DNA from: Candidatus Woesebacteria bacterium RIFCSPLOWO2_01_FULL_39_23
GTDB taxonomy: Bacteria; Patescibacteriota; Microgenomatia; UBA8517
DNA length: 64,000 nt
NCBI GenBank assembly: GCA_001793095.1
Contig: MGHG01000009.1
Span: forward strand, 15,450-79,449
Reading direction: 5' to 3'
Shown piece by piece: positions 1,518 to 54,938 of the stretch (positions within the stretch are counted from its first letter, which is position 1; the number at the start of each line of letters is the position of its first letter). A program made the position numbers and the translations under genes. The notes below the pieces were generated by a model. That model was given only the letters and a program-made list of their open reading frames with translations. It was not told the origin of the DNA and searched no databases.

Positions 1518-1581
1518 CTTACTCTCTATGTGCTTTATTATCTTGTAAAACATAACTTAGAAGAAGTAAAATACCCCTGTT

Positions 1582-2667
1582 ATGAGTTTAGTTGACCCCA
1601 GAGTTAAAAAACAGGCTGAGATATTGATTGACCACTCGCTAAAGGTTAAAAAGGGTGAAAAAGTTGTCGTGATAGGCAATTTTCAGGCAAAAGATTTGAT
1701 GCTTGAGATATATAGACTTTTGGTTAAAAGTGGGGTAGTGGATGTTATTAATAAATTTGACACATATGATTTTGCCGAAACGTTTTTCAAAGAAGCTAGT
1801 ACTGATCAGATTAATTATTTTCCCAAGTTTGACATGGAGGAGGTAAAGTATGCGGATTGCTATCTTCGTATAGCTGCTCCCATAAATACCCGAGGTTTAT
1901 CCGGAGTTGACCCTGATAAGATATCTCAAAGATCGAAAGTCTTAAAACCAATTACTGATTATCGGGTTGAGAAAACAAGATGGGTTATTACGCGATTTCC
2001 GACTGAATCTCAGGCTCAGGAGGCAGATATGTCGCTATCGGACTACGCGGATTTTGTTTTCAGTGCGATTAACAACGTCGATTGGAAAAAGCAGTTTAAA
2101 GAACAGGAGAAGCTGCGAATGAGAGTCGATACGACACAGACTGTTCGGATAATAGGCAGTGGCACTGATTTGAAATTAGGCATTAAAGGCAGAAAAGCAG
2201 TAAATGCCGCAGGTGAATTTAATATGCCGGACGGTGAGGTATTTACATCAGTTGTGGAGAACGAAGCAAATGGTTATATAACTTACTCATTCCCGGCTTT
2301 ATATCTCGGTAGGGAATTTAATGATGTTAGGTTGGAGTTTAAGAACGGAAAAGTTATCAGTGCCACAGCATCGAAGAATGAGGAAGCATTAAATAAAATA
2401 TTAGATATGGATGCCGGATCACGCTACATCGGGGAGTTGGGGATCGGAAATAATTTTAATATTAAGAAATTTACAAAAGATATTTTGTTTGATGAAAAAA
2501 TCGGAGGAAGTATTCATATAGCATTAGGAAAAGGTTACAAGGAGACAAAAAGTAACAATGTGTCCGCGTTACATTGGGATATGATAAAGGATTTGAGGGG
2601 CGAAGGAAAATTGTGGTTCGATAATAAACTGGTTCAGAAGAACGGTAAATGGCTTATAAATATTTAA
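1582..2667 (+). CDS. Aminopeptidase, M29 (AmpS/PepS/aminopeptidase T) family-like
   Basis: 361 aa. Overall resemblance to thermophilic-metalloprotease M29 aminopeptidases. Assignment by memory of family features, not a search. Confidence 0.55.
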   Translation: MSLVDPRVKKQAEILIDHSLKVKKGEKVVVIGNFQAKDLMLEIYRLLVKSGVVDVINKFDTYDFAETFFKEASTDQINYFPKFDMEEVKYADCYLRIAAPINTRGLSGVDPDKISQRSKVLKPITDYRVEKTRWVITRFPTESQAQEADMSLSDYADFVFSAINNVDWKKQFKEQEKLRMRVDTTQTVRIIGSGTDLKLGIKGRKAVNAAGEFNMPDGEVFTSVVENEANGYITYSFPALYLGREFNDVRLEFKNGKVISATASKNEEALNKILDMDAGSRYIGELGIGNNFNIKKFTKDILFDEKIGGSIHIALGKGYKETKSNNVSALHWDMIKDLRGEGKLWFDNKLVQKNGKWLINI

Positions 2668-2712
2668 TTTTCTTTGCCTGACTTTCTTTTCAAAGAAAGT
2701 CAGTGATAAGTA
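2668..2712 (+). promoter_or_regulatory. Conserved leader element: TTTTCTTTGCC + 10-bp hairpin (TGACTTTCTT/AAGAAAGTCA, loop TTCA) abutting the efp start codon
   Basis: Seen directly in the sequence. Three more copies occur in the same orientation relative to their genes (gyrA, rpsP, rpmF), and the stem arms covary. The purine-rich 3' arm is the only SD-like sequence before the ATG at 2712. Confidence 0.55.
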
Positions 2713-3272
2713 TGATTACGGTACAGGATCTAAAAAACGGCACAACATTTCAAATGGATGGAAGTCCGTATGTGGTTTTGAAATACGAACACATTAAAGT
2801 GGGTAGGGGATCGGCAACAATCAAGGTTAAAATAAGGAACCTTAAAAACGGATTAATTGCTGAAAAAAACTTCATCAACTCAGCTAAAGTCGAGGAAATT
2901 AATACCAAAAAAAGGCAGTTGCAATATCTGTATCGTGACGGTAAGGACTTATATTTTATGGATCCAAAAAACTATGACCAGATAAGTCTGAATGAAAGCA
3001 TACTGGGTAACGGAACGGCGTTTCTAAAAGACGGCATGGATGTGGATATCCTTTTTTGGGATGAAAAACCGCTGACCGTCGATCTACCTCCCAAAATGGA
3101 GCTTAAGGTAACCGAGACTGATCCGGGGGTTAAGGGAAACTCTGCCGCGAATGTCTATAAACCGGCAATTTTAGAAAATGGCTTGCAGGTTAAGGTGCCG
3201 CTTTTTATTAATAGCGGAGATAAAATTAGAGTTGATACACGAACGGGAGAGTATGTAGAGAGAGCAAAATAA
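2703..3272 (+). CDS. efp: Elongation factor P
   Basis: 189 aa. KNGTTFQMDGSPYVVLKYEHIKVGRGSATIKVKIRNLKNG is a typical EF-P KOW/OB arrangement. The true start is probably the ATG at 2712 rather than the GTG at 2703. Confidence 0.9.
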   Translation: MISMITVQDLKNGTTFQMDGSPYVVLKYEHIKVGRGSATIKVKIRNLKNGLIAEKNFINSAKVEEINTKKRQLQYLYRDGKDLYFMDPKNYDQISLNESILGNGTAFLKDGMDVDILFWDEKPLTVDLPPKMELKVTETDPGVKGNSAANVYKPAILENGLQVKVPLFINSGDKIRVDTRTGEYVERAK

Positions 3273-3319
3273 AAAAACTCCAAAAATCCAAAACTCAAAA
3301 TAGAAAAACAATAAATTTA

Positions 3320-3781: not shown

Positions 3782-3872
3782 AATGTATAATCATATACCT
3801 TTTCGTCAACGGTAGGCAAACCTGGTATCAGTAAAGTTTGGCCTTCTTGAATCTGGTATAATAATCCTTTGA

Positions 3873-4496
3873 TTGGGGAAACCGTTTGGCATGTTAATTA
3901 ATGTTCTTTCCATAGCTATTAATTTATTCGGGGTGGTGCTTGCCTTTTTCTTTTTTTGGAGGAGACTGAAAGAAGACTATATTCCGGATCAGATTTTTAC
4001 ACTTGCATTTTGGGTTTTATTTACTTTCCTAGCTAGTTTAGCGCTAGCTTTACTTTTTGTGCATACACTTGCATTCTGGTTACCGCTTGTTACGTCTTTA
4101 ACGGTGTTGATATATTTAAGCAAACGTTCAGGAATGCATTTTTTTGAGGTCTTGGAAGCGGGAATATTATCTTTTCTGGCTTGGTTTTTCATATTTTCCT
4201 TGAGTTTACTTATAGCTAACAGAAGTTCGCAGGTATTTAGCCTGATTGGCATTAATTTAATTTCGCTTACTCTTTTTTTTCTGGTTGACGCGCATTATAA
4301 GAAGATTACATGGTACCGATCGGGTAGGGCAGGGTTTACGGGCATGTTTGTTGTCGGTCTTTATTTTCTGGTTAGATCAGGGGTTGCACTACTTTCTCCG
4401 AATATGTTAATCTTCATGACAGAATACGATGTTTTTATTTCAGGTATAATATCGTTTACAGCTTTTTTAACAATATTTAACTTAGCAAAAGCATGA
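3873..4496 (+). CDS. Hypothetical polytopic membrane protein
   Basis: 207 aa with about six predicted TM helices by eye. No catalytic motif recognised. Confidence 0.45.
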   Translation: MGKPFGMLINVLSIAINLFGVVLAFFFFWRRLKEDYIPDQIFTLAFWVLFTFLASLALALLFVHTLAFWLPLVTSLTVLIYLSKRSGMHFFEVLEAGILSFLAWFFIFSLSLLIANRSSQVFSLIGINLISLTLFFLVDAHYKKITWYRSGRAGFTGMFVVGLYFLVRSGVALLSPNMLIFMTEYDVFISGIISFTAFLTIFNLAKA

Positions 4497-4934: not shown

Positions 4935-4956
4935 CCGCCCTAAGGCGGTTTTTTAG
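4935..4956 (+). terminator. Rho-independent terminator after the dksA-like gene
   Basis: CCGCC-ctaa-GGCGG hairpin followed by TTTTTT. Confidence 0.7.
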
Positions 4957-4971
4957 TGCTAGAATAATTGT

Positions 4972-5763
4972 ATGGAACCTAAAGTAATATTTGAGGATGA
5001 GTACATTCTTGTAATAGATAAACCGTCGGGGTGGGTAGTGAATGACGCAGACACCACCAAAAATATTATTACTGTTCAAGGCTGGCTAGCGAAAAATTGT
5101 AAATATGAACTAGCTCAAGACAGCGTTTATAGGAGTGGAATAGTTCATAGGTTGGATAAAGAGACGAGCGGGGTACTCATTATTGCTAAAACAAAAGACT
5201 TGTTTACTAATTTACAGGCACAATTTAAGAATAGGCAAATTAATAAAAGTTATATAGCACTTGTACACGGCATTGTTGATCCGCCTGCCGGCGGAGAAGG
5301 GGAGATAAATATAGCTGTCGGGAGATTACCTTGGAATAGACGTAGATTCGGAGTACTTCCGGGAGGTAGGGAAGCAATAACACGCTATCGCGTAAATTCC
5401 AATTACCAATTCCTCTCCGAGCCGGAGAGCTCTCTTTCCGAGTCGGAGATTCTTCCAAGTCGGAGACCGAGCCGGAGGCTAAAATCCAATGAGAAATATA
5501 CACTTCTTGAGCTTTATCCTAAAACCGGAAGAACTCACCAACTAAGAATTCATCTTAAATATCTAGGACACCCGATTGTGTCTGATGGTTTTTATGCTGG
5601 CAGAAAAACATCCAGAGAGGACCTTAAATGGTGTAACAGGATGTTTTTACATGCTCAGAAAATACAATTTTCTCATCCTATTAACGCGAAGCCAATAGAA
5701 ATCGAATCTCCGATTCCAGCCGATTTAGTAGAAGCTCTTAAACTTCTTAGTGAAATAACTTAG
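4972..5763 (+). CDS. RluA-family pseudouridine synthase carrying an in-frame repeat insertion
   Basis: 263 aa. HRLDKETSGVLIIAKT catalytic-Asp motif and GRTHQLRIH motif. About 30 extra residues (SEPESSLSESEILPSRRPSRRLKS) are encoded by a palindromic repeat array at 5413-5478. Confidence 0.85.
   Translation: MEPKVIFEDEYILVIDKPSGWVVNDADTTKNIITVQGWLAKNCKYELAQDSVYRSGIVHRLDKETSGVLIIAKTKDLFTNLQAQFKNRQINKSYIALVHGIVDPPAGGEGEINIAVGRLPWNRRRFGVLPGGREAITRYRVNSNYQFLSEPESSLSESEILPSRRPSRRLKSNEKYTLLELYPKTGRTHQLRIHLKYLGHPIVSDGFYAGRKTSREDLKWCNRMFLHAQKIQFSHPINAKPIEIESPIPADLVEALKLLSEIT
5413..5478 (+). repeat. Tandem palindromic repeat array (units around CTCCGAG[C/T]CGGAG) inserted in-frame in rluA
   Basis: ctctccgagccggag / ttccgagtcggag / ccaagtcggag / accgagccggag. 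Each unit is an interrupted palindrome CTCCG-N3-CGGAG. Related arrays occur at 27881-27951 and 36505-36545. Confidence 0.6.
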
Positions 5764-5824: not shown

Positions 5825-7495
5825 ATGAGTTTTACAGAAATATCGGTTATTTTTTTTACGGCTTCAATATTTGCAATATTGGCTAAAACTATTAAACAGC
5901 CCCTTTTGATTGGTTATATATTTGCTGGATTGCTTTTGGGGGCATTGGGACTTTCGGGAAACATCCACTCTTTTGAATCATTAAGTCAGCTGGGAATTGC
6001 TTTACTGCTGTTTCTTTTAGGTTTGGAAATGAATCTTTCTGAGGTCCACTTAATCGGAAAAGTTGCTTTTATTACAGGAGTAACTCAGATATTGGTTACG
6101 ACATTTTTTGGTTTTATTTTGAGTACGTTATTTGGATTTGATCGGTTGCCCTCGCTTTATATCGCGGCGGCACTTTCGTTTTCTTCGACAATTATCGTTA
6201 TAAAACTTTTGTCAGAAAAGAAGGATCTGAATAGTTTGTACGGAAAAATTTCTATCGGGTTTCTTCTGGTTCAGGACCTTTTTGCAATTCTTATCCTGAT
6301 ATTTTTGTCTGGCCTCAAGGCAGGTACAAATCCGGATTTTATGAATTTTGCCACTTTGTTTTTAAGGGCCATTGTTCTTTTGGTTTTGGTTTGGATTCTC
6401 GCCAAAAAAATTTTTCCTATTTTCATCGAAAAATATGTCGCCGGCTCAGGTGAGCTTCTGTTCGTTACTAGTATCGCCTGGGCATTGGGTTTTGCTGCTT
6501 TTGTCGCGGGTCCCATGGGATTTTCTGTCGAGATAGGAGGTTTTCTGGCAGGCCTGTCGTTATCGACTCTACCCGAACACTATCAGATAGCTTCGAAAAC
6601 AAAACCTTTGCGTGATTTTTTTCTAATAATCTTTTTCCTGCTTCTTGGATCAAAATTGGTTATATCGAGTGCATCTTTATTGTTAATGCCAACTGCTTTA
6701 GTTTTGTCGTTTTATGTTTTGGTGTCTCACACGGTAATACTGTTTGTGATATTGGGTTTTTTAGGCTTTAGAAAAAGAACTTCATTTTTGGTAGGTTTAA
6801 CGGTCGCACAGATATCGGAATTTTCGATAATATTAGTTGCTATAGGATTATCTTTGGGTCATATTACGGGACCAATAGTTTCTTTAATTACGATGGTAGG
6901 CATAATTACGATGACGATATCCACCTATCTGATATTGGGATCGGAAAATTTATACGAGAGATTTAAACATAAGTTATCTATATTTGAACGCAAGTTTCCG
7001 AAAGAGCTCTCAATTCCTATGCACTTCGAACTCGAAAATCACATAGTTCTTGTGGGCTGCGATAGGACGGGTAAATCAATATTGTCTTATCTGGTCAGAA
7101 AAAATTTAAAGATCGTTGTCATTGATTTTAACCCGAGTGTTTATTCGAAGCTTTGTGAGCAAAAAATACCGGTGATTTTGGGTGATGTTAATGATTCAGA
7201 CGTAGCAGATTTTGCATCAATTCGTGAAGCGGGATTGGTTATTTCCACAATAGGGAACTTTAATGACAATATCAGGCTTTTGGCCGAGCTTGATAGTCAA
7301 AAGCAAACGGTAGTTATTGTTGCTTCGACAAGATCTGAAGCACTGCGGTTATACGAGCGGGGAGCAAGTTATGTTATAGTACCCGAATTTTTGGCAGGGG
7401 AACATTTAAAGCATCTGTTAATTCACTTTAAAGGTTTCTATGCCAAATTTAAGAAAATAGGCCGGCGGCAACATGAGAAATTAATTAATGGATAG
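5825..7495 (+). CDS. Cation:proton antiporter (CPA/Kef-type) with C-terminal TrkA-N/RCK domain
   Basis: 556 aa. About 12 TM helices are followed by a Rossmann-like VLVGCDRTGKSI segment typical of RCK/TrkA-N. Confidence 0.75.
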   Translation: MSFTEISVIFFTASIFAILAKTIKQPLLIGYIFAGLLLGALGLSGNIHSFESLSQLGIALLLFLLGLEMNLSEVHLIGKVAFITGVTQILVTTFFGFILSTLFGFDRLPSLYIAAALSFSSTIIVIKLLSEKKDLNSLYGKISIGFLLVQDLFAILILIFLSGLKAGTNPDFMNFATLFLRAIVLLVLVWILAKKIFPIFIEKYVAGSGELLFVTSIAWALGFAAFVAGPMGFSVEIGGFLAGLSLSTLPEHYQIASKTKPLRDFFLIIFFLLLGSKLVISSASLLLMPTALVLSFYVLVSHTVILFVILGFLGFRKRTSFLVGLTVAQISEFSIILVAIGLSLGHITGPIVSLITMVGIITMTISTYLILGSENLYERFKHKLSIFERKFPKELSIPMHFELENHIVLVGCDRTGKSILSYLVRKNLKIVVIDFNPSVYSKLCEQKIPVILGDVNDSDVADFASIREAGLVISTIGNFNDNIRLLAELDSQKQTVVIVASTRSEALRLYERGASYVIVPEFLAGEHLKHLLIHFKGFYAKFKKIGRRQHEKLING

Positions 7496-7506: not shown

Positions 7507-8484
7507 ATGGTAACGAGAACTAATGTTAGACACGTAAAAAAATTATTGAAGTCCAGGAATGAGCGTAAAAGGCGTGTAAGTAACAATAAGATGGGGAAGG
7601 GGAGTAGCATACTATCCAGAGCAATTTTGTTATTAGTTTTCCTCTTTGTACTAGTTCTTATTATTTTAGTGCGTGGAAAAAGGAGTTTGATCGAGGGAGT
7701 AAACAAAGTAAATATAGCTCTAAGGACGCATAACGACGATGTTGAAGTTTTAAGCTTCGATTTTAAGAGGGGTGAGATAAATGAAGTTATAATTCCGGGT
7801 GACACCGAGGTTGTTGTCGCAAGAGGTTTGGGTGAATTTAGACTGGAAAATGTATGGAGAGTTAGCGAGGACGAAGGCTTGGGCGGGGAACTCTTGGCCG
7901 AAACACTGACCAGTTATCTTAAAATTCCGGTTTATATATGGGCAGATGAAACGGCTGGGGCTTTGGCAGAAAAACATGTTATCGCATTGATCAAGGCGGT
8001 AATACTACCATACAAAACAAATTTGACGTTCTTAGACAAGGCCAAAATTGCATATTTTAATTTATCCGTGAAAAATACTAAAAGAGAAACAATAAATCTG
8101 GCTGACTATTCGTATTTAAAAAAACAGGTTTTGATTGACGGCGAGGAGGGTTTTGTACTATCGGGAAAACCTCCAAGTGAACTTTATAGTTTATATAGCG
8201 TTGAGGAAATTTCGGAAAAAGCTTTACGGGTATCTCTGGATGATGAGTCAGGAGAGGGAACGGTTTCTGAAAATCTTGCTCAGGTTATTGATGTTTTGGG
8301 TGCGAAAATCGCAGTAGTTAATACCAAAGAAGAAAAACGGGGTTTTTGTGAAGTTAAGGGGAGCAGTGATGTATTAATAAGTGAGCTTCAAAAGTTATTT
8401 AATTGTACGAGAGTTGCAGAGGTAAGTGATGATGTTTTTGATGTAAATATTAAGATCGGAAGTGATTTTTCGAAGGGATTTTAA
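7507..8484 (+). CDS. Hypothetical membrane-anchored protein (possibly LytR/CpsA/Psr-like)
   Basis: 325 aa. Basic N-terminus, a single TM helix, and an extracytoplasmic domain. The LCP assignment is weak. Confidence 0.3.
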   Translation: MVTRTNVRHVKKLLKSRNERKRRVSNNKMGKGSSILSRAILLLVFLFVLVLIILVRGKRSLIEGVNKVNIALRTHNDDVEVLSFDFKRGEINEVIIPGDTEVVVARGLGEFRLENVWRVSEDEGLGGELLAETLTSYLKIPVYIWADETAGALAEKHVIALIKAVILPYKTNLTFLDKAKIAYFNLSVKNTKRETINLADYSYLKKQVLIDGEEGFVLSGKPPSELYSLYSVEEISEKALRVSLDDESGEGTVSENLAQVIDVLGAKIAVVNTKEEKRGFCEVKGSSDVLISELQKLFNCTRVAEVSDDVFDVNIKIGSDFSKGF

Positions 8485-12553: not shown

Positions 12554-12659
12554 CCAGTGTCGCACAATATTGACAGCGTGTATCAAATAGTGTAAGCTGA
12601 GTTATACTTAACAATTACCACTTGTCATTTGACATTTAGCATTTATAGTTTAATTAAGC

Positions 12660-13610
12660 ATGACTGCCCAATCATCTTCATCTGAAATAGCTAAAAAAGT
12701 TAATGATTTTTTGGAGTACCTCGAAGTTGAGAAAGGCTCCTCTCCCCTGACTATAAGGAACTATCGCCATTATTTAGGACGCTTTATGGACTTTTTGAGT
12801 AAAGAAGGTATACGGATGAATTTGGTCGATATTAACCCGGAAATAGTTCGCCAGTTCAGGGTTTATTTATCACGACTTCCCGGTTATAAACATCAAGGGA
12901 CAATTTGCAGAAAAACTCAAGGATATCACGCGATTGCGATTCGATCATTTCTCCGTTGGTTAATCAAAAACGATTTTAAAGTGATGTCTCCGGATAAAAT
13001 TGATTTACCGAAGGTCGCCGAGCGACAAGTTAAGTTTCTATCAAGTGAGGATGTCGGACGTTTGCTTAATTCCCCGTCACTTTCGACAATAAACGGGAAA
13101 AGAGATAAGGCGATTTTAGAAGTTCTTTACTCAACCGGGTTACGTGTGTCCGAACTGGTAAGACTTAATCGCGACGAAATTGATTTAGACAGGCGGGAAT
13201 TTGGGGTTGTCGGAAAAGGCGGACGAGCGCGAGTAGTATTTTTATCGAAGCGGGCTGCTGAATGGATTGATGCATATTCAAAAGTGAGAGCTGATCACTT
13301 CAAGCCTTTATTTATACGGCATAAAGGAAAAATTGATCCGGCGGTAGCGGATGAAAAAATGCGGCTTACGTCAAGATCGATTCAGAGAATGATAAAAAAG
13401 TATGTCAGGAAAATAAAGTTGACGGTGGACGCAACACCCCATGTCTTACGACATTCTTTTGCAACTGATCTTCTTATGGCGGGAGCCGATATTCGAAGTG
13501 TGCAGGAAATGCTGGGACATAAAAATATTCAAACTACTCAAATATACACCCACGTTACCCAACGCCACCTCAGGGAAATCCACGAGACGTTTCATGGAAA
13601 AGGAAATTAG
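12660..13610 (+). CDS. Tyrosine site-specific recombinase, XerC/XerD family
   Basis: 316 aa. C-terminal HVLRHSFATDLLMAGADIRSVQEMLGHKNIQTTQIYTHV holds the R-H-R-Y catalytic signature region. N-terminal SAM-like core-binding domain. Confidence 0.85.
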   Translation: MTAQSSSSEIAKKVNDFLEYLEVEKGSSPLTIRNYRHYLGRFMDFLSKEGIRMNLVDINPEIVRQFRVYLSRLPGYKHQGTICRKTQGYHAIAIRSFLRWLIKNDFKVMSPDKIDLPKVAERQVKFLSSEDVGRLLNSPSLSTINGKRDKAILEVLYSTGLRVSELVRLNRDEIDLDRREFGVVGKGGRARVVFLSKRAAEWIDAYSKVRADHFKPLFIRHKGKIDPAVADEKMRLTSRSIQRMIKKYVRKIKLTVDATPHVLRHSFATDLLMAGADIRSVQEMLGHKNIQTTQIYTHVTQRHLREIHETFHGKGN

Positions 13611-14162: not shown

Positions 14163-16790
14163 CTACTTCTTTTCTTCCACTGCTTCTTCATCAGTAGTTT
14201 TTTCAAGAACGGTCATAGCGGCTACGGCATCTGTCTTATCAGTGAAACGCATGAGTATTACGCCTTGCGTCGCCCTGCCCATCTGCGGAATATTTTTTAA
14301 GGGCAGCTTGATAATTTGTCCGAATTTACTCGTTATTACTACCTGCTCGACATTTTCGGTAACCAAGGCTTCGGTTGCCAGATCGCCCGTTTTCGAATTA
14401 ACGACTGCTGCTTTTACCCCCTTCCCCGCCCTTTTCTGTTGCGGGAATAAGTGGGTTGGTGTTCTTTTACCCAACCCCTTGCCCGAAATCGTTAACATAT
14501 CTCTGAAATTTTTCCTTCTTTTATCATCACTTTTTTTATGGTCCGGCGGGAAAACTTCCATGCCTATAACAAGATCTTCTTTTTCAAGTTTAATTCCGGT
14601 TACTCCGCTTGTTGCCCGACCCATTGATCGCGCATTAGCTTCGGGAAATCTAATCGATTTACCTTTTTTTGTTAATAAAAATATATGGTCGTTTCCGGTT
14701 GTCTCGTGGACAGAAACCAGAGAATCATCCTTATCTAAACGGATTGCAATAATTCCGGAAGTCCGGATATTCGTAAATTCTTTGATCGACGTCTTTTTTA
14801 TCACACCTTTGGCTGTAGACATTATTAGGTAACTTCCTATTGTAGTCATAGGTAGAATCGACATAATACGCTCGTTTTGCTCTATGTTTAAAATGTTTAC
14901 GACAGCCTGACCCTTAGCCTGCCTTGAAGACTCCTGAATTTCCCAGGCTTTAGTTCCGTAGACCTTACCTTTATCAGTGAAGAATAAAATTGTATCGTGA
15001 GTTGTAGCGGAAATGATGTGCTCTATTTCGTCTTCTTCTTTGGTTGTCATACCCACCACCCCCTTGCCGCCGCGTCTTTGTGCTCTGTAAGTTGTTCTCG
15101 GCACCCTTTTTATATAACCGGTTTTCGTAATTGTGATCAGGGTTTCTTCTTTAGGCACAAGATCCTCTTCACTAAATTCTCCTATTTTAGCTTTATAAAT
15201 TTTAGTTTTACGTTCATCCCCAAATTTCTTTTTTGCATCCTCCAGTTCACCCATTATCATGTCTAAAACTTTATTGGGATCTCTGAGAATTGCGATTAAC
15301 CTGTCTATCAATTTCTTTATCTCATTATATTCTTCTAATATTTTTTCCCGCTCTAAAGCGGCAAGGCGCCTTAGTTGCATGTCCAATATTGCCGTAGCTT
15401 GGATGTCGCTGAGCGCAAATTTTGATATAAGATTGTTTTTGGCATCTTCCTGGGTTTTGCTTTTTCTAATTGTCGAAATTACCTCGTCTAAGTTGTCGAG
15501 CGCAATCATTAACCCTTCCAAAATATGGGCTCTTCTTTTAGCTTCCGTAAGATCGAATATTGTTCGTCGGATAATTACTTTAAGTCGGTGTTTGACATAC
15601 TCAACCACAATTTCTTTTAGACTTAAGGTGCGGGGTGTACCGTCGACCAAGGCTACGAAATTAGCAGGAAAAGAACTTTGAAGTTTGGTTAATTTATATA
15701 AATTATTTAGTACGGCTTTAGGTTTAGAATCGCGTTTTAGTTCAACTACGACCCTAAGTCCGTCTTTGTCTGATTCGTCACGCAGGTCAGATATGCCGAC
15801 TATTTTTTTCTCTCTGACTAAGTCTGCGATTTTTTTAACTAACTCTGCTTTATTGACTTGGTAAGGTATGGCACTAATAATAATAGACTCTTTACCTTTT
15901 TTACTCTCAGTTATTTCAGCAATACCACGAACCGTTATTTTGCCCCTACCAGTTGCATACACTTCTTTTATTGATGCCGCATCGTAAATAGTTGCACCGG
16001 TTGGAAAATCCGGACCGGGAATAAATTTAATCAACTCTTCCAGGGTAATTTCACTATCAAAATCAACATTATTTGCGTCGATCTCTTTATTTTCAAGTTT
16101 TTTCTCAACACCTGCTGCAACTAAGTTTATTTTTTTGATGACAAATTCAGTTTCTTCTTTCTGGTTTTCTTGATCTGTTATTACCCCACCCTTTTTTATT
16201 GCAGATACAATTCCGTCGATAACCTCTTTGAGATTGTGCGGAGGAATTTTTGTCGCCATGCCGACGGCGATGCCCTCTGACCCCATAAGCAGTAAGTTTG
16301 GCAGTAGTGCCGGAAGGTATACAGGTTCTTTTAAGGTCGCATCGAAATTATCGATCACCTCAACGGTATCTTTTTGAATATCCGTGAGGAGTAGATCTGA
16401 TATTGTTGCCAGCTTTACCTCAGTGTAGCGCATTGCTGCAGCGGAGTCTCCGTCGACCGATCCGAAATTACCCTGGCCTTTAATTAAGGGGTATCTTAAA
16501 GAAAAAGTTTGTGCCATTCTGACTAAAGAGTCATAAACGGCAACATCGCCATGGGGGTGATATTTACCCAACACTTCTCCGACAACTTTTGCCGACTTTG
16601 TGAAAGATGAACTAGGTCCGAGCCCCATTTGATACATTGCATAAAGTATTCTTCTGTGGACGGGCTTGAGCCCGTCTCTGACATCCGGAAGGGCTCGGGC
16701 TACAATAACGCTCATTGCATAATCAACGTAAGATTTAGCTAGTTCGGAGGTTATTTCGATGGGTTTAATTTTTCCAATATCCATATACAT
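14163..16790 (-). CDS. gyrA: DNA gyrase subunit A
   Basis: 875 aa. [22 protein letters not shown] with the active-site Tyr region. C-terminal beta-pinwheel repeats. Confidence 0.95.
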
Positions 16791-16830
16791 TTCGTTCTTT
16801 CTTTTCTAAAGAAAGAACGGCAAAGAAATT
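16791..16830 (-). promoter_or_regulatory. Conserved leader element (ATTTCTTTGCC + hairpin CGTTCTTTCT/AGAAAGAACG) abutting the gyrA start
   Basis: Read on the minus strand: ATTTCTTTGCC-GTTCTTTCTTT-agaaa-AGAAAGAAC-gaa-ATG. Same architecture as the efp, rpsP and rpmF copies. Confidence 0.5.
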
Positions 16831-16929
16831 TATAACGCAAATACTATTCTAAAATTCATAGTCCGTATCTTCTTTACCAAAGCGAGACAAAGAAATTAAT
16901 ACAGAAAACAAAAATGAGGCTGGATAGCC

Positions 16930-20825: not shown

Positions 20826-23470
<2,645 letters not shown>

Positions 23471-49027: not shown

Positions 49028-49073
49028 AAACTTAATCAGACTTTCTTTCAGAAAGAAAGTCTGGCAAAGAAAA
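49028..49073 (-). promoter_or_regulatory. Conserved leader element (TTTTCTTTGCC + hairpin AGACTTTCTTT/AAAGAAAGTCT) before the rpsP start
   Basis: Minus strand: TTTTCTTTGCC-AGACTTTCTTT-ctg-AAAGAAAGTCT-gattaagttt-ATG. Near-identical to the efp copy, with a compensatory T/A change in the stem. Confidence 0.55.
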
Positions 49074-49099
49074 TAACATAAAAATACTGAGTCATTGGA

Positions 49100-49128
49100 A
49101 TTGTAATGGAAAAACGATTTTTTTACAA
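49100..49128 (-). promoter_or_regulatory. Sigma70-like promoter of the rpsP operon (-35 TTGTAA, 17 bp, -10 TACAAT)
   Basis: The minus strand reads TTGTAAaaaaatcgtttttccatTACAAT. The -10 context tttccatTACAATtcca is shared with the rpmF promoter. Confidence 0.55.
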
Positions 49129-50605: not shown

Positions 50606-50650
50606 AAACATTTCTCACCTTCTTTTAAAAGAAGGTGAGTCAAAGAAATG
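50606..50650 (-). promoter_or_regulatory. Conserved leader element (ATTTCTTTGAC + hairpin CTCACCTTCTT/AAGAAGGTGAG) before the rpmF start
   Basis: The minus strand reads ATTTCTTTGA-CTCACCTTCTT-ttaa-AAGAAGGTGAG-aaatgttt-ATG. The SD GAAGGTGAG lies entirely inside the 3' arm. Confidence 0.55.
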
Positions 50651-50673
50651 AAAACAAAGACAATACTCTTGGA

Positions 50674-50702
50674 ATTGTAATGGAAATATACTGTTCATGC
50701 AA
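50674..50702 (-). promoter_or_regulatory. Sigma70-like promoter of rpmF (-35 TTGCAT, 17 bp, -10 TACAAT)
   Basis: The minus strand reads TTGCATgaacagtatatttccatTACAATtccaag. The block tttccatTACAATtcca is identical to the rpsP promoter. Confidence 0.55.
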
Positions 50703-53783: not shown

Positions 53784-54938
53784 TTATTTCACTTTGATAA
53801 ATCTTTTTTTACCTATTCTGATAATATCTCCTTTGGCTAAGTTAATAATACTATTGGGTATTAAAACTTTCTGGTCGTTAAGCTCGACTGCACCCTCTAA
53901 AACCAATTTTTTAGCGTGGACCGTACTCCCCGTGGCATTGGAAAGAATAGGTAGCATTCTGGCTTGATATTGCCCAGGTTTAATGAAAATTTCGATTTGC
54001 GCCTCGTTATATTTGTGCTCTTTATGTACTTGGTCAAATTTTAACTCGGCTTGGTTAGCTGAAGATTTGCCGAAATAATTTGACGTAATTTCTTTAGCTA
54101 GGTTTCTCTTGAGAAGATATGGATTTCGATCATTAGGTTTATTCTCTATTATGACGTTGGTACATAATTCGTAATACTCAGGAATCAAATCGTCTGATAT
54201 TGACATTACCTTTCCATATATATCGAAAGCATTTGTATTTATTGGAATGTAATTTCCTGCGGATTTACTCATCTTAGAGCCGTCAGTTCCTAATAAAAGT
54301 TTCATTATTACCACGTCTTGTTCTTTCTGTCCGTAGCGCTTTTGCATCTGTCTGCCCATAAGAAGGTTAAATTTCTGATCAGTCCCTCCCAACTCTACGT
54401 CGGCTCTCAGCCGTACTGAGTCATACCCCTGCATTAGTGGGTATAGAGTTTCAAGATAGGATACATCGTCACCCTCCTCAACTCTTTGACGGAAGTCTTT
54501 TCTCTCAAAAATTTGAGCGAGAGTTGCTTTTGATGCAAGTTCAAATATTTTATATAAATCCATTTTTGCTAACCAGGTACTGTTATACTCAAATTTTACT
54601 TTTTTTAAATCTAATATTTTCCCCGCCTGTTCCTTGTAAGACGTCATATTTTTTTCTATTTCTTCTTTTGTTAAAACTTTCCTTGAGACATTCCTTCCGC
54701 TAGGATCACCTATACTCGCGGTAAAATCTCCAATGACAAGAACTGCCTGATGTCCTAAATCTTGGAATTGGCGTAGTTTTCTTAGAACTACCGCATGACC
54801 CAAATGAAGATCTGTTCCCGTAGGATCAATTCCAAGTTTAACGATCAGTTTTTCACTGGATCTAAGCTTGTTAATGAGAGATTCTCTGACTATTATCTCA
54901 TCAACGCTGCTCGTCAAAACTTCATCGATTTTATCCAT
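53784..54938 (-). CDS. tyrS: Tyrosine--tRNA ligase
   Basis: HLGH (DLHLGHAV) and KMSKS motifs. C-terminal S4-like domain. Confidence 0.9.
   Translation of the reverse strand: MDKIDEVLTSSVDEIIVRESLINKLRSSEKLIVKLGIDPTGTDLHLGHAVVLRKLRQFQDLGHQAVLVIGDFTASIGDPSGRNVSRKVLTKEEIEKNMTSYKEQAGKILDLKKVKFEYNSTWLAKMDLYKIFELASKATLAQIFERKDFRQRVEEGDDVSYLETLYPLMQGYDSVRLRADVELGGTDQKFNLLMGRQMQKRYGQKEQDVVIMKLLLGTDGSKMSKSAGNYIPINTNAFDIYGKVMSISDDLIPEYYELCTNVIIENKPNDRNPYLLKRNLAKEITSNYFGKSSANQAELKFDQVHKEHKYNEAQIEIFIKPGQYQARMLPILSNATGSTVHAKKLVLEGAVELNDQKVLIPNSIINLAKGDIIRIGKKRFIKVK

Follow-up and report, generated by a model that had tools for sequence, protein, structure and literature searches.

Four genes of Candidatus Woesebacteria RIFCSPLOWO2_01_FULL_39_23, efp, gyrA, rpsP and rpmF (encoding EF-P, GyrA, S16 and L32 according to Pfam), are preceded by look-alike leaders, in which a short box is followed directly by a hairpin standing close to the start codon. 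In our study, we asked whether these leaders are translational switches that bury the ribosome-binding site (RBS), as a first-pass annotation had proposed, or elements of a different kind. The window, i.e. the whole stretch of DNA analysed, covers 64 kb of this genome. Comparison of the window with relatives favours reading the module as an undescribed REP-like repeat rather than an RBS-hiding switch.

Architecture and fold of the module

Read 5' to 3', the module of about 48 nt comprises a T-rich run, the box TTTCTTTG(C/A)C, a 12-bp stem and the flank GA-R-W-A. The consensus stem is perfectly palindromic, C-NNN-CTTTCTTT / AAAGAAAG-N'N'N'-G, and the stems in the window reach 11-12 bp, as the box contributes its final C to a pair with a G past the 3' arm. 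Positions of the copies and of the accompanying promoters are given in Table 1. With the covariance model the efp, gyrA, rpsP and rpmF copies score 61.1, 61.6, 67.2 and 58.2 bits, respectively, and in all four the hairpin ends 7-12 nt before the start. Of two ATG candidates for gyrA, at 16790 and 16784, the ortholog points to the second, while the rpmF hairpin carries one compensated inner pair, C-G replacing U-A. An unfiltered search of the window with the model returned no copy beyond these four and a decayed fifth, 67 nt upstream of the gyrA copy (19 bits, E = 0.07), and 16 kb of extra flank on the source contig held no new one.

Table 1. Module copies and associated promoters in the 64-kb window
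Feature	Coordinates	Strand	Details
efp copy	2665..2708	+	box TTTCTTTGCC 2669-2678; hairpin 2678-2703 (CTGACTTTCTT/AAGAAAGTCAG), 11-12 bp
efp copy, context			3' flank TGATA; efp ATG 2712; stop codon of upstream M29 peptidase ends at 2667
gyrA copy	16788..16832	-	box 16828-16819; 12-bp hairpin 16819-16793 (CGTTCTTTCTTT/AAAGAAAGAACG)
decayed extra copy upstream of gyrA copy	16859..16899	-	box TTTCTTTGTC and degenerate short hairpin
rpsP copy	49032..49076	-	box 49072-49063; 12-bp hairpin 49063-49037 (CAGACTTTCTTT/AAAGAAAGTCTG); ATG 49027
rpsP promoter, sigma-70-type	49100..49128	-	TTGTAA-17-TACAAT; 27 nt upstream of box (promoter scan)
rpmF copy	50609..50652	-	box TTTCTTTGAC 50648-50639; hairpin 50639-50614 (CTCACCTTCTT/AAGAAGGTGAG), 11-13 bp; ATG 50605
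probable rpmF promoter	50674..50702	-	TTGCAT-17-TACAAT; 25 nt upstream of box (read directly)

The four leaders are present as they had been described at first reading. The box TTTCTTTGMC was found five times against 0.76 expected, and the composite pattern of box and both inner arms four times, compared with 0.00 in 100 shuffles. Counting perfect stems of 9 bp or more, the 64 kb contain just seven hairpins, of which four are module copies, and the hairpins of the window copies fold at z = -3.2 to -5.2 relative to shuffles. The fifth box match, 22024-22033 (-), lies within gyrB and has no hairpin.

Across copies the palindrome spans 27-31 nt around a centre (loop) of 3-7 nt. The symmetry often runs into the loop, giving a perfect palindrome of 26 bp in the rpmF copy and a palindrome of 27 bp around a single central base in the rpsP copy. 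In 46 aligned copies the three outer pairs make use of AU, UA, GC and CG with no mismatch or wobble in 138 cells, and the closing C-G pair is invariant; this alignment omits three matches to the search pattern of CPR type (L039, L075, L085), in which outer or closing pairs are not Watson-Crick. Over all CPR-like copies our own tally gave one G.T pair in about 650. Invariance of the box and inner stem at the 96 loci scanned below is imposed by the search pattern, and unbiased support for their conservation comes only from the window copies and five copies found by the model.

The claim that the stem sequences differ and stay complementary is thus borne out by the covariation in the 46 copies, as well as by compensated orthologs of rpmF (L070) and gyrA (L014). 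Since the variable stem positions covary, it is the folded hairpin that is selected and not a linear duplex site, and with a loop of 3-7 nt a rigid dimer on duplex DNA would not fit. To that extent the annotation was right in placing selection on structure rather than on a DNA-binding site. Its restriction to RNA fares less well: selection may act on RNA or on single-stranded or cruciform DNA, and the scarcity of G.U pairs, together with the occurrence of both orientations described below, leans away from a purely sense-RNA element.

In a positional profile of 52 copies the T-rich run at -9 to -1 is the only signal upstream of the box. Variant inner stems or divergent members, sought for three-way covariation, were not detected down to E = 10 in the model search. 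An unbiased hairpin census yielded canonical copies, terminators and assorted unrelated hairpins only. The module itself was rejected as an intrinsic terminator: GA-R-W-A follows the hairpin, and the T-rich run is on its 5' side. Canonical terminators with T-tracts are present elsewhere in these genomes, and two copies appeared in a simple terminator scan through scattered T's alone.

Distribution, orientation and gene boundaries

A pattern scan of 185,579 species genomes gave 101 matches at 96 loci. About 50 matches belong to some 20 low-GC assemblies of Woesebacteria, Microgenomates and Patescibacteria, with several per genome. True copies score at least 43 bits with the covariance model and noise below 20 bits, with none in between. 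This genome holds four copies and the decayed one in about 80 kb, and relatives several per 8-kb sample. Outside CPR, few genomes carry the module, several copies each, beside unrelated genes (thrS, potA, srlB); the identical box and inner stem occur patchily in some Firmicutes, Thermodesulfobacteriota and Nitrospirota genomes, and Rfam searches near these non-CPR copies detected no tRNA- or rRNA-linked element. Tandem arrays were noticed in Oscillospiraceae, and decayed or tandem copies at gyrA and at L009:527, which point to insertion having happened repeatedly.

The genes next to the module are strongly enriched for translation, transcription and division machinery. They encode ribosomal proteins, EF-P, NusA, NusG, FtsZ, GyrA and ATP synthase (the identity of DnaK rests on a 15-residue N-terminus), and further copies stand 6-11 nt upstream of genes for tRNA-Arg, Lys, Leu, Pro and Glu and for tmRNA, the last identified by Rfam. 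Other translation genes of the same genome lack the module, namely those for L31, RF-1, IF3-L35-L20, ThrRS, HisRS and trigger factor. The statement that no described element bears this signature still stands: Rfam at the gathering threshold found one tRNA and no module match in the whole window, a permissive Rfam search with two copies gave chance-level matches only, and literature searches on the box itself, CPR promoter and leader motifs, extragenic palindromes and Patescibacteria stem-loop or noncoding RNA yielded no description of it.

The annotation had the element always in the orientation of its gene. This is true within the window and fails for the family: 35 copies point forward and 15 are reversed (binomial p = 0.0066), and in relatives about 30% run antisense to the genes beside them. 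In the ribosomal-protein operon of L009, all genes of which are on one strand (Pfam), there are four copies, antisense at L2|S19, S3|L16 and S14|S8 and sense at S17|L14; the reversed S14|S8 copy also occurs in a second genome, L090. The copy at ftsZ is forward in L021 and reversed in L057. Comparably frequent occurrence inside coding regions had, like random orientation, been named as evidence against the original reading; no copy lies within a coding region in the window or in the sampled relatives.

Irrespective of orientation, the hairpin end abuts a coding boundary in every copy. A forward hairpin is separated by 7-12 nt from the start codon downstream of it, or by 6-11 nt from the 5' end of a tRNA (median 8), and a reverse one lies 2-13 nt, mostly 7 nt, past the stop codon of an opposite-strand gene. 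On the box side the distance to the neighbouring gene varies from 0 to 120 nt; the box, which would be single-stranded, faces away from the abutted gene and is equally intact in reversed copies. Apparent 'orphan' copies, considered as leaders of new RNA genes, were rejected as such, Rfam being empty downstream; they are reversed copies abutting 3' ends of opposite-strand genes. Some copies are situated in convergent regions with no gene to regulate, e.g. past the 16S 3' end in L081, and copies in L012, L061, L062 and L081 follow a terminator and precede the next promoter, a position in which transcription should be low.

Transcription context and insertion in relatives

The rpsP promoter contains a 17-mer, TTCCATTACAATTCCAA (49111-49095), which is shared with the rpmF leader. 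The rpmF promoter was missed by the simple scan because its -35 matches 3/6 positions; both of its hexamer regions are kept in L070, and the linker between it and the box has diverged. As promoters stand 16-30 nt upstream of the box, the module falls inside transcripts, and we infer that it is transcribed. Many genes of this genome are leaderless, with a -10 box 6-10 nt before ATG, and Shine-Dalgarno (SD) motifs are seen at about 8/59 starts. On the 52-copy profile we rejected an upstream promoter at constant spacing from the box, with the box as discriminator; a -10 element downstream of the hairpin was also rejected, since ATG or the tRNA 5' end comes within 6-12 nt.

Several orthologous junctions are empty. 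The same TGGTAAAAT promoter precedes tRNA-Leu(CAA) in the window, where no module is present, and in L038, where a module stands downstream of it. At pheS|pheT the window reads TAAtATG, compared with a 52-nt insert in L078, and comparison of the empty and filled junctions revealed no clear target-site duplication, at most a GT dinucleotide. In all four close relatives recovered from metagenomes, efp is leaderless and has no module (0/4). Likewise, in four syntenic relatives rpmF is leaderless without module, and rnc and rpsP overlap or are 7 nt apart, with neither the module nor its spacer. These five junctions, each with or without the module depending on the genome, indicate that it is inserted DNA placed downstream of pre-existing promoters; moreover, its absence from efp, rpmF and rpsP orthologs means that it is not a gene-linked regulatory leader.

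Insertion need not have been recent. The rpmF copy has survived in both the window and L070, with compensation at one pair, next to a linker that has diverged, and the gyrA copies of the window and L014 differ in the outer stem and are fully compensated. Because outer stems differ within one genome and orthologous copies persist across species, the module is old and stably inherited, not recently mobile. Its mobility is putative. A tblastn search with E. coli RayT linked no mobilising enzyme to the module in the approximately 2% of each genome covered; the palindrome flanking the one RAYT-like Y1_Tnp gene found (L053:6880-7638, Pfam E = 7e-7) is not that of the module but AGCGAAATTYATTTCGCG.

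Readings of the module and their weight

The reading we prefer, tentatively and at somewhat less than even confidence, is that of a REP-like dispersed palindromic element, the transcribed hairpin of which caps or insulates the adjoining cistron end and which is kept by a factor recognising box and stem. The module would have been copy-pasted between an existing promoter and a gene start, or into an operon junction, and then transcribed in 5' leaders and intercistronic spacers, where it should fold into a very stable hairpin against one coding boundary. Most likely this hairpin would act as a structural cap or punctuation mark, insulating and stabilising the adjoining cistron end, and it might also keep the inserted DNA compact, so that neighbouring signals remain close together. 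Conservation of the box and inner stem implies a sequence-specific partner that recognises the folded hairpin, putatively an enzyme that mobilises or maintains the module, or else a nucleic-acid-binding protein of the host. The capping role is proposed by analogy only, and the partner is deduced from the conservation.

By its features the module fits the REP class: it is a palindrome of the 20-40-nt class in dispersed, strictly extragenic copies, found in both orientations and clustered or in tandem. REPs and BIMEs of enterobacteria and pseudomonads, which have RAYT partners and number tens to hundreds of dispersed copies, are likewise short extragenic palindromes with a conserved motif directly 5' of the hairpin foot; they share with the module the dispersal, the two orientations, the intercistronic and gene-end sites, the compensatory stem changes and the tandem or clustered copies, and transcribed REPs are known as stable hairpins protecting adjoining mRNA. 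The differences are also clear. The box is the 10-mer TTTCTTTGMC instead of the GTAG tetranucleotide, the stem is perfect and fixed at 12 bp whereas the REP hairpin is imperfect, and copies are single and not paired as REPINs. Furthermore, 70% of copies face a downstream gene start, tRNA leaders included, while classical REPs favour 3' ends, and REPs have a cognate RAYT, which for the module was not found in the ~2% of each genome covered. MITEs are defined by terminal inverted repeats and a target-site duplication; at pheS|pheT the latter would amount to no more than the GT dinucleotide.

As regards the proposed capping, stabiliser hairpins such as those of E. coli ompA, the B. subtilis aprE and ermC leaders and the cggR-gapA junction form a stable barrier at a cistron edge, as the module would, and chloroplast intercistronic caps (3' inverted repeats, PPR10 sites) protect the upstream 3' or the downstream 5' end. 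These elements, however, are gene-specific and have no common sequence, whereas the module is one sequence at dozens of loci. Enrichment at essential, highly expressed genes, where selfish insertion is most harmful, argues against the REP-like reading and for a positive host function, which the label 'REP-like' leaves unspecified. The age and stable inheritance of the copies weigh against it too, as do the lack of a linked mobilising enzyme in the sequence covered and of a clear target-site duplication at pheS|pheT. In addition, the intact box of reversed copies, which a sense-RNA role does not explain, hints at recognition at the DNA level.

Unlikely, though the least so of the alternatives, is a regulatory operator, i.e. 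a regulon signal in leaders of growth genes, the box and hairpin of which are read by an RNA- or DNA-binding protein. It might serve as a growth-rate or starvation brake, acting by a roadblock or as a translational or decay operator. The enrichment of targets for translation, transcription and division machinery, the fixed position just upstream of the gene and the better conservation of box and inner stem than of the adjacent leader are all in its favour, and the bimodal scores without decayed intermediates suggest purifying selection on each copy. Nevertheless, the gene association is labile: the same genes have no module in relatives, and other translation genes of the same genome lack it. 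Nor does an operator sit well with 30% of copies being antisense, with those in convergent regions that have no target gene, or with the copies beside unrelated genes outside CPR. CIRCE, the HrcA operator of dnaK and groE, is similar in being a perfect inverted repeat between promoter and start codon, and it is both a DNA operator, with HrcA binding duplex DNA, and an mRNA hairpin. Unlike the module, it has fixed arms, a fixed 9-nt spacer, no covarying part and no 5' box, and is confined to chaperone operons.

Recognition of DNA could take a structural form, in which the AT-rich palindrome extrudes as a cruciform near heavily transcribed genes and is bound by, or buffers, a topology or nucleoid protein, the RNA hairpin being a by-product. 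The strictly Watson-Crick pairs agree with this, as do the symmetry reaching into the loop in the rpmF and rpsP copies, the equally intact box in both orientations and the copies of L012, L061, L062 and L081 where little transcription is expected. Gyrase binds BIME/REP clusters in E. coli, and one copy precedes gyrA itself. We still regard this explanation as decidedly unlikely: the asymmetric rule tying the hairpin end to the coding boundary is unexpected for a purely structural DNA site, no candidate is known for the putative binding protein, and extrusion of a 27-31-bp palindrome in vivo is hypothetical.

We give very little credence to the module being itself a promoter, the box of which would provide the -35 (TTGCCN/TTGACN) and the 3' arm a weak -10 (GAAAGT), with a start site 3-5 nt before ATG or the tRNA 5' end and hence near-leaderless transcripts. 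The box does contain TTGAC or TTGCC, TTGMCN and GAARGN are for the most part 14-18 nt apart (mode 16), and column 39, T in 41/46 copies, would match the -7 T of a -10 element; spacing to the gene start varies little, leaderless designs are common in the clade, and copies in L081, L020 and L035 come directly after a terminator, leaving no space for a separate promoter. Against these points, GAAAGT matches TATAAT at 3/6 positions and some copies have GAAAGA or GAAAGG. Upstream promoters are conserved: orthologous tRNA-Leu retains TGGTAAAAT with or without module, and the rpmF promoter is kept across species. In Oscillospiraceae a canonical TTGACA...TATAAT promoter follows the hairpin. Reversed copies would fire antisense into ribosomal-protein genes, and covariation in a promoter spacer would have no rationale.

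Just as improbable is a site of boxA/nut type, in which the box would be the boxA of this lineage, bound by NusB-NusE, and the hairpin its boxB-like companion, both serving to load a complex for antitermination or processivity on transcripts of stable RNAs and ribosomal proteins. E. coli boxA is GCTCTTTAACAA and that of B. subtilis TGTTCTTTGAAAA. The box resembles them, with a UCUUU(G) core, and a boxA-like GTACTTTGACA upstream of the L081 23S gene shares CTTTGAC with the TTTCTTTGAC variant. As in lambda nut and rrn boxA-boxB sites, a U/C-rich box stands by a hairpin early in the transcribed region, in the box-then-hairpin order of lambda nut, and upstream of Nus-factor genes (nusA, nusG and the rpmF-nusB operon). 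However, an antitermination site would serve no purpose 8 nt ahead of a tRNA of 75 nt or of a short gene. The module differs from nut and boxA-boxB sites in that a conserved hairpin abuts the box, in preceding very short genes and in its antisense copies, which amount to 30%; the one rRNA leader examined, that of the L081 23S gene, has no module, unlike with rrn boxA. Orthologs lack the module, and its patchy non-CPR distribution is at odds with a universal factor.

In sense RNA there is a slim chance that the box folds into the major groove of its own hairpin as a U.A-U / C+.G-C triple helix, which may constitute a hypothetical stability knot of ENE/MALAT1 type. The mirror symmetry of 5'-UUUCUUU-3' and its parallel alignment with the purine arm 5'-AAAGAAA-3' fit three U.A-U triples, one C+.G-C and three U.A-U in Hoogsteen geometry, while the linker of 2 nt (G, C/A) would span the deep groove along the five outer pairs, as loop 1 does in H-type pseudoknots. 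If true, this would explain an outer stem free in sequence yet fixed in length, the zero spacing between box and stem, and the invariance of box and inner stem. ENEs similarly bring together one A-rich and two U-rich strands, interrupted at a C/G position, but they clamp a 3' A-tract in eukaryotic and viral RNAs, and the triple helix of the module is purely hypothetical. Reversed copies speak against such a triplex as a general role, as do variants of the box that lack corresponding changes in the stem; the sole inner-pair change (rpmF, C-G), unmatched in the box, would affect a terminal triple.

Finally, an RNA thermometer or autoregulatory translational operator of four core genes, sequestering the SD sequence as originally proposed, is highly improbable and largely refuted on computational evidence. 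Its basis is that the CUUUCU tail of 16S rRNA in a relative (L081) complements the 3' arm AGAAAG, which lies about 12-14 nt from AUG, that AAGGUGA lies within the rpmF arm, and that the hairpin overlaps the expected 30S footprint. The same module, however, precedes tRNA and tmRNA genes, which have no RBS, antisense copies exist, and the efp, rpmF and rpsP orthologs do without it. The observation that the only SD-like sequence is in the 3' arm loses its force in a largely leaderless clade with SD motifs at ~8/59 starts. FourU and ROSE thermometers and ribosomal-protein operators do resemble the module in that a pyrimidine-rich arm pairs with a purine-rich stretch near the start codon. Thermometers, on the other hand, are short, imperfect, marginally stable helices on a true SD that melt at about 30-42 °C, whereas the perfect 11-12-bp stems (-13.7 to -17.9 kcal/mol for the ~60-nt segments holding the window stems) will not melt in the physiological range. 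Operators of ribosomal proteins mimic rRNA sites and travel with their operon; neither holds for the module, which is one sequence at efp, gyrA, tRNA genes, nusA, ftsZ and others and is absent from rpsP and rpmF in syntenic relatives.

Returning to the REP-like repeat, its occurrence has consequences for the biology of this group. CPR bacteria have tiny, gene-dense genomes and, to our knowledge, almost no experimentally known cis-elements. In such genomes a 48-nt module is reused at dozens of gene boundaries, those of tRNA, tmRNA and core growth genes included, and the implied partner, along with a layer of transcript (or DNA) organisation, is undescribed for CPR. The patchy presence in Firmicutes, Thermodesulfobacteriota and Nitrospirota suggests horizontal spread or a common recognition protein. 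Caution is also advisable in general, as a repeated 'leader motif' before attractive genes can be an inserted repeat and not a regulon signal. Through the module, the ancestrally leaderless or translationally coupled rpmF, efp, rpsP and pheT have acquired leaders whose hairpin stands 8 nt from the start codon, and initiation must still occur after a strong hairpin in an organism that hardly uses Shine-Dalgarno sequences.

Layout of the module and selection on its copies

Read directly, the four window sites have an identical layout, in which the last C of the box (TTTCTTTGCC, or TTTCTTTGAC at rpmF) is the first base of a perfect 11-12-bp stem of the form C-NNN-C(T/C)TTCTT(T), loop, (A)AAGAA(A/G)G-N'N'N'-G. 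The closing G lies 8-9 nt from the start codon (for gyrA counted to the second ATG), and the genes that follow encode EF-P, GyrA, S16 and L32 according to Pfam. The window's S16 is 100% identical to the protein of Candidatus Woesebacteria bacterium RIFCSPLOWO2_01_FULL_39_23, whose contig, in versions of up to 322 kb, turns up in many samples. In the window the box alone matched five times against 0.76 expected, the fifth exact box being probably a chance match, and box plus both inner arms matched four times against 0.00 in shuffles, which bears out the four look-alike leaders described in the first-pass annotation. An unbiased scan of the 64 kb for perfect hairpins with stems of 9 bp or more gave only seven, of which four are module copies. 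Folding of the window hairpins was 3-5 standard deviations better than that of shuffled sequence, and the approximately 60-nt segments containing the stems fold at -14 to -18 kcal/mol; such stability of perfect 11-12-bp stems is unlike that of an RNA thermometer. No Rfam family matched the module, either in the window or in a permissive search over two copies, and the searchable literature yielded no description of it, in keeping with the initial statement that no described element carries this signature.

An unfiltered covariance model returned exactly the four window copies and one decayed copy (see the table). A second decayed partial copy was noticed in L009, an S10-spc ribosomal-protein operon locus. 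Decayed copies carry the box with the hairpin eroded or missing, and those of the window and L009 lie 45-67 nt upstream of intact copies, which hints at more than one insertion at one place, or at a local duplication there.

In an alignment of 46 copies all four Watson-Crick combinations (AU, UA, GC, CG) occur at the three outer pairs, whose 138 cells hold neither mismatch nor wobble. The stem is closed by C-G in every copy, and an A comes directly after it in 90%; this alignment omits L039, L075 and L085, CPR-like pattern matches with non-Watson-Crick outer or closing pairs. As was expected if the stem is selected, its arms diverge in relatives with compensatory change: the gyrA copies of the window and of locus L014 have outer stems GTT/AAC and TAA/TTA, fully compensated, and at rpmF, where window and locus L070 share promoter hexamers and module around a diverged 20-nt linker, one inner C-G pair has become T-A, both arms having changed. 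Judging from these alignments, selection is acting on the copies in place. Invariance of box and inner stem at the scanned loci was imposed by the search pattern; independent support for it comes from the four window copies, from five copies found only by the model, and from the covariance model search and unbiased hairpin census, which gave no intermediate-scoring or variant family.

Hosts, neighbouring genes and orientation

A scan of one genome per species (185,579 species) for box plus inner arms, with outer stem and closing base left free, gave 101 matches at 96 loci. About half of the matches fall in some 20 low-GC assemblies (Woesebacteria, Microgenomates, 'Patescibacteria group') and a few Saccharibacteria, usually several per genome. 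Four MAGs labelled 'Gammaproteobacteria' have NusG nearly identical to that of Woesebacteria, and therefore are probably mislabelled Patescibacteria of the same group. The 'uncultured Gammaproteobacteria' MAGs with the element (L002, L007, L009, L028, L039, L086 (CAZVJU01); L044, L079, L089, L047, L059) have 37-43% GC and NusG N-termini nearly identical to the Woesebacteria ones.

Beyond CPR, the species scan found several copies per genome in a few lineages, with box and inner stem identical to those of the module and outer stems rich in GC: Oscillospiraceae, Butyricicoccus, Ruminococcus and Christensenellaceae MAGs, and Thermodesulfobacteriota and Nitrospirota MAGs; Ilyomonas (Chitinophagaceae) has copies with imperfect stems. 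Oscillospiraceae MAGs carry box and hairpin as tandem arrays that repeat every 56-103 nt; these are not CRISPR arrays, since the whole unit is repeated. Some of them stop right at TTGACA, the -35 element of the thrS T-box leader promoter, and other copies precede potA or srlB. Such a patchy, multi-copy pattern agrees better with horizontal spread of repeat families than with a host signal of universal occurrence.

In Woesebacteria/Microgenomates-type genomes the module stands 7-12 nt (median 8) before the start codon. Beyond the four translation and DNA-topology core genes first noted, it precedes nusA, nusG, rplK, rplN, rpmF, rpsT, ftsZ, pilM, atpG, gyrA, pheT, nrdR, and the genes of class-I LysRS and a proton pyrophosphatase, among others. 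Part of these names come from N-terminal sequence alone; NusA, LysRS, PilM, CYTH and the L009 ribosomal proteins were confirmed by Pfam. A ribosomal-protein operator was rejected because the targets are so varied and association with any single gene changes readily in evolution. At 6-11 nt the module also precedes genes for tRNA-Arg, Lys, Leu, Pro and Glu and one tmRNA (confirmed by Rfam), so the signal cannot be primarily about ribosome binding. At locus L058 a tRNA-like 5' half, called by neither ARAGORN nor Rfam, may belong to an intron-containing tRNA gene; such genes were recently reported for Patescibacteria (PMC13011429).

The initial proposal of a hairpin that buries the ribosome binding site has, moreover, little to act on: only about 8 of 59 window starts have a Shine-Dalgarno motif, and many first genes of the window show a -10-like TAnnnT box 6-10 nt before the ATG, a leaderless design. 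Relatives' efp (TGGTAAAAT, then 7-9 nt, ATG) and rpmF (GGGTTAAAAT, then 7 nt, ATG) are built likewise, and initiation in this organism appears to be mostly leaderless or independent of SD. The proposed mechanism as a whole (burial, thermometer or operator) finds no support.

Nor does the rule that copies follow the gene's own orientation extend to the family, about 15 of 50 classifiable copies being antisense to flanking genes; this orientation is biased (binomial p = 0.0066 against 50:50), not exclusive. In the L009 operon, whose genes all lie on one strand (Pfam), the copies at L2-S19, S3-L16 and S14-S8 are antisense and that at S17-L14 is sense. Reversed copies occur at S14-S8 in a second genome (L090), at S11-S4 (L047), at S8-L6 (L071) and before dnaK (L089), and at ftsZ the copy is forward in L021 but reversed in L057. 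The copy in the Woesebacterium locus L081 stands next to a canonical terminator in a convergent region, 170 nt beyond the 3' end of the 16S gene. The terminator after this 16S gene and an opposite-strand 503-aa ORF between the gene and the tRNA-23S unit leave the rRNA genes unlinked. In all cases the module's hairpin end abuts a coding boundary, either a same-strand start codon or an opposite-strand stop codon (2-13 nt to the latter, mostly 7), and the box end lies 0-120 nt from its neighbour.

Coordinates of features in the window and in loci sampled from the species scan (L handles)
Feature	Location	Strand	Remarks
Decayed copy	window 16859-16899	-	covariance model; 67 nt upstream of gyrA copy; box kept, hairpin eroded
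Second decayed partial copy	L009, around 487-526
Fifth exact box TTTCTTTGAC	window 22024-22033	-	inside gyrB coding region; without hairpin
17-mer TTCCATTACAATTCCAA	window 49111-49095, 50685-50669	-	includes -10 box TACAAT and next bases
17-mer TTCCATTACAATTCCAA, rpmF leader	L070, around 7685-7700
TAnnnT start examples	window 1559-1584, 3857-3875, 4956-4974, 12644-12662, 53939-53955
Oscillospiraceae arrays	L013 3183-3465, 7418-7797; L061 2159-2391, 4978-5031; L062 5590-5719
Further Oscillospiraceae arrays	L017 2438-2693; L034 3930-4223
tRNA-like 5' half (GGCGACCCCATCGTCTAACGG...)	L058, around 2700-2822	-	begins 8 nt past element
boxA-like GTACTTTGACA	L081, around 3285-3300	-	upstream of 23S gene
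Y1 (IS200/RAYT-like) transposase, HYH motif	L053 6880-7638	+	Pfam Y1_Tnp, E = 7e-7; gene interrupted
Palindrome AGCGAAATT(T/C)ATTTCGCG	L053, near 7330-7350, 7665-7685		short, differs from module; interrupts/follows Y1 gene

Filled and empty junctions

Five junctions could be compared with and without the module. Before tRNA-Leu(CAA) the window has promoter tttgaagtggaaatcTGGTAAAAT, 16 nt and the tRNA, and locus L038 has the same promoter, 21 nt, module, 6 nt and the tRNA; the pheS-pheT junction reads TAAtATG in the window and TAG-gt-[module]-AGAATGT-ATG in L078. At the remaining three the window is filled: the nearest relatives' efp (56-61% identity) is leaderless with no module by covariance model, rpmF is leaderless and without module in four syntenic relatives, and rnc and rpsP, overlapping or 7 nt apart in four syntenic relatives, are separated by a 101-nt spacer with a TTGTAA-17-TACAAT promoter and the module. 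These natural comparisons mark the module as inserted DNA. A 17-mer, TTCCATTACAATTCCAA, common to the rpsP spacer and the rpmF leader (kept in that of L070), lies upstream of both copies and hints at intragenomic copying of a larger segment; the rnc-rpsP spacer, without counterpart in relatives, may be such a promoter-plus-module segment of about 90 nt.

A possible transcript-capping role and its alternatives

Our preferred reading, tentative and by analogy, is that the module is a REP-like dispersed extragenic palindrome of distinctive anatomy that caps transcripts. Independent origin at dozens of loci is impossible for a composite of 48 nt in which about 30 positions are fixed, so the module would have spread by insertion and then persisted for long under selection for pairing and for box and inner-stem sequence. 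As the hairpin always stands against one coding boundary with the single-stranded box facing away, the simplest unifying role would be that of a structural cap or punctuation in the transcript. The role is carried over from REP hairpins, 5' stabilisers and chloroplast intercistronic caps, which act in this manner. A forward copy would place a stable hairpin at or near the 5' edge of the downstream cistron or pre-tRNA, a reverse copy would supply a 3' hairpin for the upstream cistron, and in both orientations the insert would be looped out, keeping stop and start signals close. That box and stem are both conserved points to a specific partner. In L053, an element-bearing Patescibacteria MAG, a Y1-transposase (RAYT-like) gene is flanked by a palindrome different from the module; the two may make up an independent REP/RAYT system of this CPR genome.

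Recognition at the DNA level is a serious alternative: G.U pairs are nearly absent, palindromic symmetry runs into the loops and boxes are intact in reversed copies. Loops vary from 3 to 7 nt, too much for a rigid dimer on duplex DNA, and the form recognised would therefore be a folded hairpin. The original claim of a selected RNA hairpin rather than a DNA-binding site stands, by covariation and loop length, against such a dimer, but single-stranded DNA or a cruciform fits as well. A regulatory role is a serious alternative too, favoured by enrichment at highly expressed essential genes. The module is probably not a promoter: TTGMCN, a 14-18-nt spacer and GAAAGT recall one, but the -10 is poor, antisense copies would fire into ribosomal-protein genes, and conserved upstream promoters are present. 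The filled/empty junctions likewise show separate promoters upstream, so that the module would be transcribed within leaders and is not needed as a promoter. A boxA/nut site is also unlikely: although the box has the UCUUU(G) core in common with boxA and L081 carries a boxA-like GTACTTTGACA, the 23S rRNA leader of that locus has no module, and copies precede very short genes or are antisense. A triple helix in sense RNA, with the mirror-symmetric box UUUCUUU lying parallel to the purine arm AAAGAAA of its own hairpin, is very improbable: the sequence meets the needs of seven Hoogsteen triples (three U.A-U, one C+.G-C, three U.A-U), the 2-nt linker across the 5-bp outer stem has pseudoknot loop 1 geometry, and the fixed outer-stem length, zero box-stem spacing and invariant inner stem would be explained, but reversed copies and uncompensated box variants speak against it. 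An intrinsic terminator was dismissed, since the T-run precedes the hairpin instead of following it and these genomes have canonical terminators at other places.

The module thus appears to be undescribed, a REP-like variant or perhaps a signal with a regulatory or structural function that derives from such a repeat; its interest for CPR biology is moderate to good.
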